64,000 nt of DNA from Escherichia coli (GCF_003334255.1 NZ_QOWU01000002.1); one strand, 5' to 3'. Positions 6,932 through 39,723 are shown, counted from the first letter of the stretch. Notes: generated by a model from the sequence alone, not told the origin. Numbers and translations: made by a program.

Positions 6932-10083
<3,152 letters not shown>

Positions 10084-10100
10084 TACAACGTGTAATCACT

Positions 10101-10126
10101 AAGGCCGCGTAAGCGGCCTTTTTTAT
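10101..10126 (+). terminator. Intrinsic terminator downstream of acrB
   Basis: Hairpin AAGGCCGCGTAAGCGGCCTT followed by TTTTTAT, about 20 nt after the acrB stop. Confidence 0.75.
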
Positions 10127-10628
10127 GCATAACCTACGAACATTAAGGAGTAATTGAACCACCAACTCAGGATCTCATACGAAAACCAGTATTAACCACG
10201 GATAAAATTCATAAAAAATACTGATTGTTAGTTAATTTATATTAAGTAGCGCTAATAGATTTAATAATCCATAATCATTTAGAGGCTATTCTTAATTATT
10301 TGCGGTAATTCTTTATTCATTCCTCGGTTATTACGTCATATTCAGAGCAATCCTGGTATTAGTGTCACCAATTTCATCTGGCGATAATCCTGAAATGTTA
10401 TGAATAGTTCGAGCAAACTGCTTTTACCTGCTGCGGGTTAGTGCTAGTATGAAAAAGTGAGTCCTGTCCCGCTTCCTTCCTAATTGTAATTTTTCGTAAT
10501 AATGCGATGAAAACCTGCAAAGAGTGGCTTATAGTTAAGCTAACAAACGAGAGGGCAAGTCCAGGTCAGTAAGTTTTTTCCATCCCGAAAGGTGTCCGTT
10601 AGTTCAACCGCTAAGAAGGGGACGCGTT

Positions 10629-11003
10629 ATGGATGAATACTCACCCAAAAGACATGATATCGCACAGCTTAAGTTTCTCTGTGAAACCCTGTATCATGAC
10701 TGCCTTGCAAACCTTGAAGAAAGCAATCATGGCTGGGTAAACGACCCAACCTCGGCGATCAACCTCCAGTTGAATGAACTGATTGAGCATATTGCGACCT
10801 TCGCACTTAATTACAAAATTAAGTATAATGAAGACAATAAGCTCATTGAGCAGATCGACGAATATCTGGATGACACCTTTATGTTGTTCAGTAGTTATGG
10901 TATTAATATGCAGGATCTTCAGAAATGGCGGAAGTCAGGTAATCGACTATTCCGTTGTTTTGTCAATGCGACGAAAGAGAATCCTGCGAGTTTATCTTGT
11001 TAG
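10629..11003 (+). CDS. tomB: Hha-associated antitoxin-like protein TomB (YbaJ)
   Basis: 124-aa ORF; translation matches TomB; immediately upstream of hha. Confidence 0.92.
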
Positions 11004-11028
11004 AATTATTACAACCATAGGTAGAAGT

Positions 11029-11247
11029 ATGTCCGAAAAACCTTTAACGAAAACCGATTATTTAATGCGTTTACGTCGTTGCCAGACAATTGACACGCTG
11101 GAGCGTGTTATCGAGAAAAATAAATACGAATTATCAGATAATGAACTGGCGGTATTTTACTCAGCCGCAGATCACCGCCTCGCCGAATTGACCATGAATA
11201 AACTGTACGACAAGATCCCTTCCTCAGTATGGAAATTTATTCGCTAA
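11029..11247 (+). CDS. hha: Haemolysin expression-modulating protein Hha
   Basis: 72-aa protein [27 protein letters not shown]...; lies inside a longer ORF-track entry (10783..11247); start chosen by match to Hha. Confidence 0.92.
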
Positions 11248-11418
11248 TAAATAATTCGCTTTCGGAGCTATAACCGGCTGTTTATTAAGAATTTTATACT
11301 TTTTCGCCATGAAGACATACCCTATGTGATCTTTATCACACAGATGTAATGGGAACGTTCTCTTCACTGACTTTTCGTCTTACTGTGTTGCCGCATTTTC
11401 AGCAACCGGAGGTCAGTA

Positions 11419-11970
11419 ATGAGCACAGAAAAAGAAAAGATGATTGCTGGTGAGTTGTATCGCTCGGCAGATGAGACGTTATCTCGCGATCGCCTGCGCG
11501 CTCGTCAGCTTATTCACCGATACAATCATTCCCTGGCGGAAGAGCACACATTACGCCAGCAAATTCTCGCTGATCTATTCGGTCAGGTGACAGAGGCTTA
11601 TATTGAGCCAACGTTTCGCTGTGACTATGGCTATAACATTTTTCTCGGTAATAATTTTTTCGCCAACTTCGATTGCGTGATGCTTGATGTCTGCCCTATT
11701 CGCATCGGTGATAACTGTATGTTGGCACCAGGCGTTCATATCTACACGGCAACACATCCCATCGACCCTGTAGCACGTAATAGCGGTGCTGAACTGGGGA
11801 AACCCGTCACCATCGGTAATAACGTCTGGATTGGCGGACGCGCGGTCATTAACCCTGGTGTGACCATTGGTGATAACGTCGTGGTAGCCTCAGGTGCAGT
11901 TGTCACAAAAGATGTCCCGGACAACGTTGTCGTGGGCGGTAATCCAGCCAGAATAATTAAAAAATTGTAA
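11419..11970 (+). CDS. maa: Maltose O-acetyltransferase (hexapeptide-repeat acyltransferase)
   Basis: 183-aa ORF; hexapeptide repeat region; matches Maa. Confidence 0.92.
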
Positions 11971-39267: not shown

Positions 39268-39723
39268 TCTGTAAATATTATTTAGCTGTAGTAATCACTC
39301 GCCGTAATTATTACGGCTAAATAAACATCAGTATCGCTTATTAATATTTGTTCTTTTGTGCGGCTTAGCGTTTGGAAATTATTGGCGCCATTTATAAATT
39401 CTATTTTTCTTACACGATTCAGCTAATGAGTCTTTATTTTCTCATCACCCAGTTGTCACTCTAATGATAATTATTTGTTAAATAATTGTTTTATTTCACA
39501 TTGGTTATACCAATTGCCCGCCCAGACTCCTTCAGCACTCCCCTTTTGTTATAACGCCCTTTTGCAACAGCTTCTTAAAATCAACCTGATATGTTTTGCA
39601 ACATATGTGACCTGGCAGCCAAATCCAAGTAACAGGAATTTAATCATGTTTACAGTAATGTAACCTTCCCGTAAAATGCCCACACACTTTAAACGCCACC
39701 AGATCCCGTGGAATTGAGGTCGT

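Follow-up and report, generated by a model that had tools for sequence, protein, structure and literature searches.

In the Escherichia coli DNA analysed here (64,000 nt in total, hereafter the window), acrB ends with its stop codon at 10083 and tomB begins with an ATG at 10629, leaving a gap of 545 bp at 10084–10628 as judged from ORFs and the K-12 annotation. K-12-like chromosomes contain the same gap with 100% identity at 480709–481253 on the reverse strand (complete E. coli genomes), so that any position can be converted as K-12 coordinate = 491337 − window coordinate. The gene order in RefSeq K-12 is acrB, the unannotated gap, tomB, hha, maa and ylaC, and the neighbour genes of the gap in the window agree with this annotation. 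Neither an ORF of ≥60 aa nor an annotated feature is present in the gap (ORF scan and K-12 RefSeq annotation). Complete E. coli genomes have it almost without exception (5424 of 5426), and its interpretation as a repeat family is ruled out by a median of one place per E. coli genome.

The initial annotation had described a long and markedly AT-rich stretch upstream of tomB, the largest gene-free one in the window, lying beyond an acrB terminator hairpin, and this description holds. GC content is 37.8% in the gap compared to 51.5% in the window, and the segment at 10202–10301 (19% GC) is the lowest of any 100 nt in the 64 kb. By the K-12 RefSeq annotation the gap is the longest unannotated stretch of the window, the runner-up being the cyoA–ampG spacer with 459 bp, and a terminator-like hairpin followed by a T run precedes the body of the gap. 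The features discussed below are, in window coordinates:

10084–10628, + strand: acrB–tomB intergenic spacer, 545 bp, 37.8% GC
10101–10126, + strand: acrB intrinsic terminator from the terminator scan, with an 8-bp GC-rich stem, a 4-nt loop and a T run
10134–10200, + strand: Escherichia-only insertion of ~65 nt, gapped in 96% of non-Escherichia species (alignment)
10202–10301, no strand assigned: AT-rich core, 19% GC, with the partly conserved blocks CTGATTGT (10221–10228), TTTATAT (10236–10242) and AATAAT (10263–10268)
10342–10355, no strand assigned: RcsB/RcsAB-box-like palindrome, TCAGAGCAATCCTG in E. coli and TA(A/G)GAATATTC(C/T)T(A/G) in most other genera
10357–10373, no strand assigned: PdhR box TATTAGTGTCACCAATT, 12 of 14 specified bases
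10486–10500, + strand: CpxR box GTAATTTTTCGTAAT, centred near −49, the published tomB(ybaJ) site
10507–10535, + strand: sigma-70 promoter with −35 ATGAAA (10507–10512), a 17-nt spacer and −10 TATAGT (10530–10535), from the promoter scan and published RpoD SELEX
10542–10628, + strand: tomB 5′UTR, 87 nt, from the SMRT-Cappable-seq start at 10542
10580–10621, + strand: possible Shine-Dalgarno-masking fold, CCAUCCC (10580–10586) with GGGG (10618–10621), enclosing a small hairpin (10599–10614)

Conservation of the spacer across species

tomB loci were taken from 80 species-representative genomes, in 76 of which acrB lies upstream on the same strand. Across 76 other Enterobacteriaceae species the spacer measures 435–559 bp with a GC content of 35–40%, length and composition being kept and sequence mostly not. 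The acrB–tomB spacer of Mangrovibacter has 846 nt. Against a background that is indel-rich and poorly conserved, islands of conservation are formed by the acrB terminator, the AT-rich blocks at ~10221–10268, the palindrome at 10342–10355, a motif near 10395–10406, and the region 10481–10545, which is almost invariant in the 77 sequences. The part between 10360 and 10480 is indel-rich and only 19–39% conserved across genera, a pattern that goes against a long transcribed leader, multiple promoters or an undescribed regulatory RNA. Aligned at ~10392–10410, a motif CTAACnnnATGAAnnnTAAGGA is shared by non-Escherichia genera and absent from E. coli, and no conserved ORF follows it.

Erwinia and Pantoea show neither acrB–tomB adjacency nor a long spacer. 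The CpxR-like repeat, the promoter and a leader of ~100 nt are present in both genera all the same, indicating that the functional core is only ~150 bp long and old. The long AT-rich extension is, judging from the genomes aligned, specific to Enterobacteriaceae. An unannotated ORF of 117 aa ends at the CpxR-like box of Erwinia and Pantoea, 143 nt upstream of tomB.

The first conserved element, the acrB terminator, is a hairpin with arms AAGGCCGCG and GCGGCCTT around TAA and a T run behind it (terminator scan); six of the eight stem pairs are GC, and the 4-nt loop and stem are followed by TTTTTTAT, giving the hairpin and U-run of an intrinsic terminator. The stem is kept across genera by compensatory changes (GGCCGC/GCGGCC versus GGTCGC/GCGACC and GGGCCGC/GCGGCCC). 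The curated Term-seq tables (PMC7815308) list no 3′ end at this terminator and have no entry at K-12 4812xx. In the Escherichia-only insertion that follows, C exceeds G (C/G 1.7). A Rho-termination region has been reported at K-12 481133, equal to window 10204, with a Rho score of 2.08 that is not assignable to the gap because its 800-nt windows take in tomB–hha (PMC7815308). This position is the end of the Escherichia-only insertion, just past the acrB terminator. We infer a link between the Rho region and this insertion, and it could be that a back-up terminator for acrAB read-through is located here.

The tomB–hha promoter and its transcript

The core promoter has been located twice, independently, by the present scan and by published RpoD SELEX. 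ATGAAA-17-TATAGT agrees with the TTGACA/TATAAT consensus at 9 of 12 positions (promoter scan), its hexamers being spaced within the 16–18 nt of a sigma-70 promoter, and SELEX with the RpoD holoenzyme gives identical hexamers as the 'constitutive' promoter of tomB–hha (PMC3946193). The sole start listed for the tomB–hha operon by SMRT-Cappable-seq is K-12 480795 on the reverse strand, or window 10542 (PMC6131387 supplement). This position, an A, lies 7 nt past the end of the −10 element at T10535, in the expected range of 6–8 nt. The tomB leader is therefore 87 nt long and not 545, and the word 'leader', which had been applied to the entire gap, is wrong for 458 of its 545 bases. Equivalent tomB UTRs in other species measure 81–101 nt. 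No second start inside the gap appears in the published SMRT-Cappable-seq operon table, which records operon-length transcripts, so that short RNAs and weak secondary starts may escape it; since Yersinia ymoBA has two starts, a weak second tomB start is possible in E. coli.

Conservation and published reporter data point to the same promoter. The −10 TATAGT is identical in all 77 species, 74 of which have RTGAAA as −35 and 76 a 17-nt spacer (alignment). A GFP fusion containing only positions −198 to −1 (window 10430–10628) is active and Hha-repressed (PMC2408971). Of three promoters predicted within 1 kb upstream of Salmonella tomB, the proximal alone is active, and TomB shifts the proximal-promoter fragment in EMSA (PMC5133643).

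The initial annotation had also seen several sigma-70-like hexamers in the gap and had raised the prospect of multiple promoters. Promoter-like sites in 9900–11500 occur at chance level (four compared to 4.5±1.9 in shuffles), with only one of them in the gap on the + strand, while the single listed operon start and the activity of the proximal Salmonella promoter alone argue against more than one promoter. The hexamers chosen as an example, TAGTAT with an upstream TTTACC, are both present and separated by a 16-nt spacer, but TAGTAT had been placed one base off and truly lies at 10445–10450, with TTTACC at 10423–10428. As a promoter the pair (10423–10450, + strand) was rejected: it matches the consensus at 8 of 12 positions, which is below the scan threshold, is confined to K-12-like E. 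coli and not conserved even in other Escherichia species, and has no start reported 3′ of it by SMRT-Cappable-seq. Nor is it needed, as the reporter fragment beginning at 10430, and thus lacking TTTACC, keeps its promoter activity (PMC2408971). An upstream promoter composed of the conserved TTGTTT and TATAAT-like blocks (10236–10268) was discarded as well, since Salmonella and C. amalonaticus keep the two at least ~22 nt apart; a 16-nt spacer was seen only in Klebsiella oxytoca, which has a deletion (alignment read by eye).

Two further published signals carry the tomB or hha name and lie outside the gap. SMRT-Cappable-seq lists a 'novel' hha–maa transcript with a start inside tomB (window 10913, K-12 480424), so some hha mRNA may arise without tomB. 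A sigma-S ChIP-seq peak labelled 'tomB' (K-12 479920–480115, window 11222–11417; PMC4447067) is uninformative on the gap because it maps to the hha–maa spacer, beside the maa start at K-12 479944.

The CpxR box is separated from the −35 element by 6 bp, and GTAATTTTTCGTAAT is found verbatim as the known tomB(ybaJ) CpxR site (PMC9600279 supplement 1). With GTAAT-N5-GTAAT at 10486–10500, it forms a tandem box with two mismatches to GTAAA-N5-GTAAA. The direct repeat is exact in 64 of the 77 species and one base off in another 11, at a constant distance of 6 nt from the −35; taken by itself, the CpxR pattern is no rarity, the window having 59 matches for 46.6 expected. Both the CpxR iModulon and the Cpx regulon of RegulonDB include tomB, which is absent from the direct CpxR targets of ChIP-exo in the condition tested (PMC7657598). 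The ymoB–ymoA promoter of Yersinia pseudotuberculosis is activated by CpxR~P, whose binding there gave a positive EMSA (PMC13353760).

The closest known system is the E. coli K-12 tomB–hha (ybaJ–hha) promoter itself, as held in RegulonDB/EcoCyc-type records: the locus is the same and the core is without any difference, sharing with the published description the hexamers, the start at 480795, the CpxR site GTAATTTTTCGTAAT, the status of PdhR target, the H-NS flag and Hha autorepression. The ymoB–ymoA operon of Y. pseudotuberculosis is orthologous, with a CpxR motif ~56 bp upstream of its start and a leader of ~106 nt, but differs in having a second start 188 nt upstream of ymoB (PMC13353760).

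Natural alleles lacking an intact promoter were seen in individual E. coli strains. The native tomB promoter of FAM21845 is split by IS1, which has inserted into the spacer separating −35 from −10 and duplicated 9 bp of its target (10520–10528). In TUM13773, IS1 takes the place of 10191–10570; the PdhR box, the CpxR box, the promoter and the start site are gone, and just 58 nt remain ahead of tomB.

The 87-nt leader may fold in such a way that the Shine-Dalgarno sequence is partly masked. The minimum free energy of the E. coli 5′UTR is no better than that of shuffles (z = −0.15), and RNAalifold retains only a 4-bp UCCC:GGGG helix with a covariation term of −0.28. In a hand-drawn two-helix model, 92.8% of positions are paired compared to 44–69% when the partner is slid, and two pairs are changed on both sides, with a UA-to-GC exchange at one pair. 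Because it was derived from the very sequences it is scored on, the model lends weak support to Shine-Dalgarno masking. A 6-bp register, CAUCCC/GGGAUG, was rejected since 18 of 72 sequences disrupt it with no compensating change, whereas the 4-bp UCCC/GGGG is always kept.

Undescribed regulatory RNA had been suggested as another possible content of the gap. A search of 9700–11500 against Rfam with permissive E-values gave a best E of 1.3, far below gathering scores and at chance level, and the Term-seq data place no 3′ end inside the gap (PMC7815308); both results speak against the suggestion. Besides the acrB terminator, the scan found no terminator-like site in the gap. No conserved small ORF was detected there either. 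An ORF of 21 aa (10507–10572, + strand) begins upstream of the start at 10542 and meets a stop after six codons in Salmonella, and minus-strand ORFs of 24 aa (10342–10416) and 40 aa (10398–10520) fall in the least conserved, indel-rich part; all three were rejected. Beyond the gap, a strong Term-seq 3′ end is reported 72 nt into tomB (window 10701, K-12 480636) in all three growth conditions (PMC7815308), with a Rho score of 1.66 and an intrinsic-terminator score of 2.7. Such an end implies that the leader and the first 24 tomB codons form a stable RNA of ~160 nt.

AT-rich DNA and candidate far-upstream protein sites

The proposal that the gap is an H-NS-type regulatory region is backed by published binding data. 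Genomic SELEX flagged the tomB/acrB spacer in vitro with an H-NS site as well as an RpoD-holoenzyme site (PMC3946193), and Hha occupies and represses, in vivo, the promoter from which it is itself expressed (PMC2408971). The composition is that of an H-NS-bound, silenced region (37.8% versus 51.5% GC, with a core of 19% GC), and we regard the AT-rich core at 10202–10301 as a candidate H-NS nucleation platform. High-affinity nucleation by H-NS occurs at a motif with the consensus TCGATAAATT. This motif is not enriched in the gap, where it has one match with two mismatches, about the frequency seen elsewhere in the window. The initial annotation had named a single start near tomB, on DNA free of bound protein, as the picture that would contradict it; the start is indeed single and close by, but protein occupancy is well documented.

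Approximately 195 bp upstream of the E. coli start, and ~195–230 bp upstream of it in most Enterobacteriaceae, lies a palindrome resembling the binding sites of RcsB. The RcsB homodimer box has been published as TN(G/A)GAN4TC(T/C)NA (PMC7913699), and an Rcs paper gives TaAGaatatTCctA as the RcsAB-box consensus; the form of the palindrome in other genera, TA(A/G)GAATATTC(C/T)T(A/G), fits both. Of the 77 species, 76 have its RGA-N4-TCY core at one constant position, compared to 5% of background windows, and 38 have the strict RcsB box there, compared to 1 of 2641 background windows. With two mismatches or fewer allowed at the fixed position, the RcsAB consensus TAAGAATATTCCTA was matched in 53 of 77 spacers and in 6 of 385 shuffled ones. 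Further to that, the variable positions of the palindrome are exactly the degenerate positions of the published RcsB box. The E. coli copy, TCAGAGCAATCCTG, agrees with 9 of the 10 specified positions of the RcsB box, missing the last A, and has five mismatches to the RcsAB consensus: it has preserved the core but neither the AT-rich centre nor the last base. Both the E. coli and the Salmonella copies end in G, not A. The nearest parallels are H-NS-silenced, Cpx- or Rcs-responsive promoters whose RcsB boxes lie far upstream. Salmonella RcsB boxes at osmB −215 and ytfK −161 work from such distances (PMC7913699), and the tomB palindrome resembles them in form, TN(G/A)GAN4TC(T/C)NA, and in its distance of 160–230 bp from the start.

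The literature searched contained no RcsB–tomB link, binding or Rcs-dependent tomB–hha expression, and no description of an Rcs input to this operon. From the alignment, we tentatively suggest that the palindrome may be a conserved RcsB/RcsAB-type operator which is decaying in Escherichia, the adjacent PdhR box having arisen there; we consider this possible rather than probable. If such an operator is functional, the Rcs envelope-stress phosphorelay would have a direct input to tomB–hha beside Cpx. This candidate is the sole lead from the locus that may be new.

The PdhR box adjoins the palindrome immediately downstream. With the operator consensus AATTGGTnnnACCAATT, only two sites with two or fewer mismatches were found in the 64 kb (10357–10373 and 39499–39515), compared to 0.25 expected by chance. 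The second is a near-perfect box (13 of 14 positions), CATTGGTTATACCAATT, in the cyoA–ampG spacer at the cyoA promoter, which fits with cyoABCDE being a known PdhR target. The box at 10357–10373 is found in Escherichia only and is not conserved beyond it (alignment), and its place ~177 bp upstream of the start is unusual for a repressor. tomB–hha has been published as a direct PdhR target, the PdhR SELEX-chip peak at the operon being weak. The PdhR sequence printed for this peak (PMC7660256) was rejected as the site in the gap, since it matches at 8 of 14 positions and maps inside acrB at 9613–9629. We found no report, in the literature searched, of the exact position of the 12/14 PdhR box, of the RcsB-like palindrome or of invariance across species.

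Regulatory reading of the tomB–hha upstream region

Taken together, the gap is very probably regulatory DNA of the tomB–hha operon, for the most part untranscribed, with one promoter and a short leader in place of a long one. Read 5′ to 3′, it begins with the acrB intrinsic terminator (10101–10126) and continues as ~350 bp of AT-rich, fast-evolving DNA that may act as an H-NS/Hha binding platform, a role of the far-upstream DNA that we infer, and within which far-upstream protein sites would be embedded, namely the RcsB-like palindrome (10342–10355), with its putative Rcs input, and the PdhR box (10357–10373). A compact and ancient core follows, comprising the CpxR box (10486–10500) and the single sigma-70 promoter, from which transcription proceeds at 10542 into an 87-nt 5′UTR whose predicted fold perhaps masks part of the Shine-Dalgarno sequence. 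RNA polymerase can use the tomB promoter with no help from an activator; under envelope stress, CpxR~P would raise tomB–hha transcription, and H-NS together with Hha, spreading over the AT-rich DNA, would repress it, amounting to negative autoregulation. The start site, the hexamers, the CpxR box, in vitro H-NS binding and Hha autorepression are all published, and are mapped here onto the window.

It could be argued instead that transcription covers all 545 bp as one long leader, or that several promoters give rise to long structured 5′ regions. The gap has a considerable and conserved length (435–559 bp), Yersinia ymoBA has starts 188 and 106 nt upstream of ymoB (PMC13353760), the TATAAT-like block at 10263–10268 is conserved and stands 16 nt from TTGTTT in Klebsiella oxytoca, and the Rho-termination region at 10204 implies some transcription entering the gap. 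Nevertheless, with 10542 as the sole listed operon start and the proximal promoter as the only active one in Salmonella (PMC5133643), such an arrangement is very unlikely: the candidate hexamers match at 8 of 12 positions and are K-12-specific, promoter-like sites are no commoner than in shuffles, the upstream blocks of Salmonella and C. amalonaticus stand too far apart (~22 nt or more) to fit one promoter, and the interior of the gap is indel-rich. We give even less credence to an unannotated, independent small RNA or small protein encoded in the gap. The gap is the longest unannotated stretch of the window, ORFs of 21 aa (+), 24 aa (−) and 40 aa (−) do exist, and non-Escherichia genera share CTAACnnnATGAAnnnTAAGGA near 10392–10410; set against this are the lack of any Rfam match at E < 1, the lack of a Term-seq 3′ end or a further terminator-like site in the gap, and the state of the ORFs, of which the 21-aa one starts before the transcription start and is stopped after six codons in Salmonella while those on the minus strand fall where conservation is lowest and indels abound. 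Nor does the current RefSeq record of K-12 annotate anything here.

A more serious alternative is that only the proximal ~150 bp (10481–10628) are functional, the upstream 400 bp being neutral AT-rich filler left behind acrB and the RcsB- and PdhR-like matches having no regulatory effect in E. coli. Agreeing with this, Erwinia and Pantoea retain the CpxR-like box, the promoter and the leader without a long spacer, an ORF ending at the box; a 198-bp fragment suffices for promoter activity and Hha repression (PMC2408971); 10360–10480 is poorly conserved; and of the two far-upstream sites in E. coli, the RcsB-like one is without its AT-rich centre and last base and the PdhR box is Escherichia-only. 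We still hold it to be rather unlikely, given that 76 species maintain the length and the AT content of the spacer, that RGA-N4-TCY is fixed in 76 of 77 species compared to 5% of background windows, that H-NS binds the spacer in vitro (PMC3946193), and that, with no more than two mismatches, the 64 kb contain just one PdhR match besides this box, which belongs to a known target.

The regulatory content of the acrB–tomB gap is thus largely known already, and the scan adds no element of a new kind. What the present analysis adds is a map of the known elements in window coordinates, the invariance of the core promoter in 77 species, a testable candidate for Rcs input, and natural IS1 alleles that destroy the native promoter. 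The minor new observations are the RcsB-like palindrome, the 12/14 PdhR box, the weakly supported Shine-Dalgarno fold, and the rare IS1 insertions breaking the promoter. Hha, together with H-NS, silences virulence genes and horizontally acquired genes, and TomB–Hha affects biofilm formation and persistence. Given these roles, the switching of tomB–hha is of practical interest.
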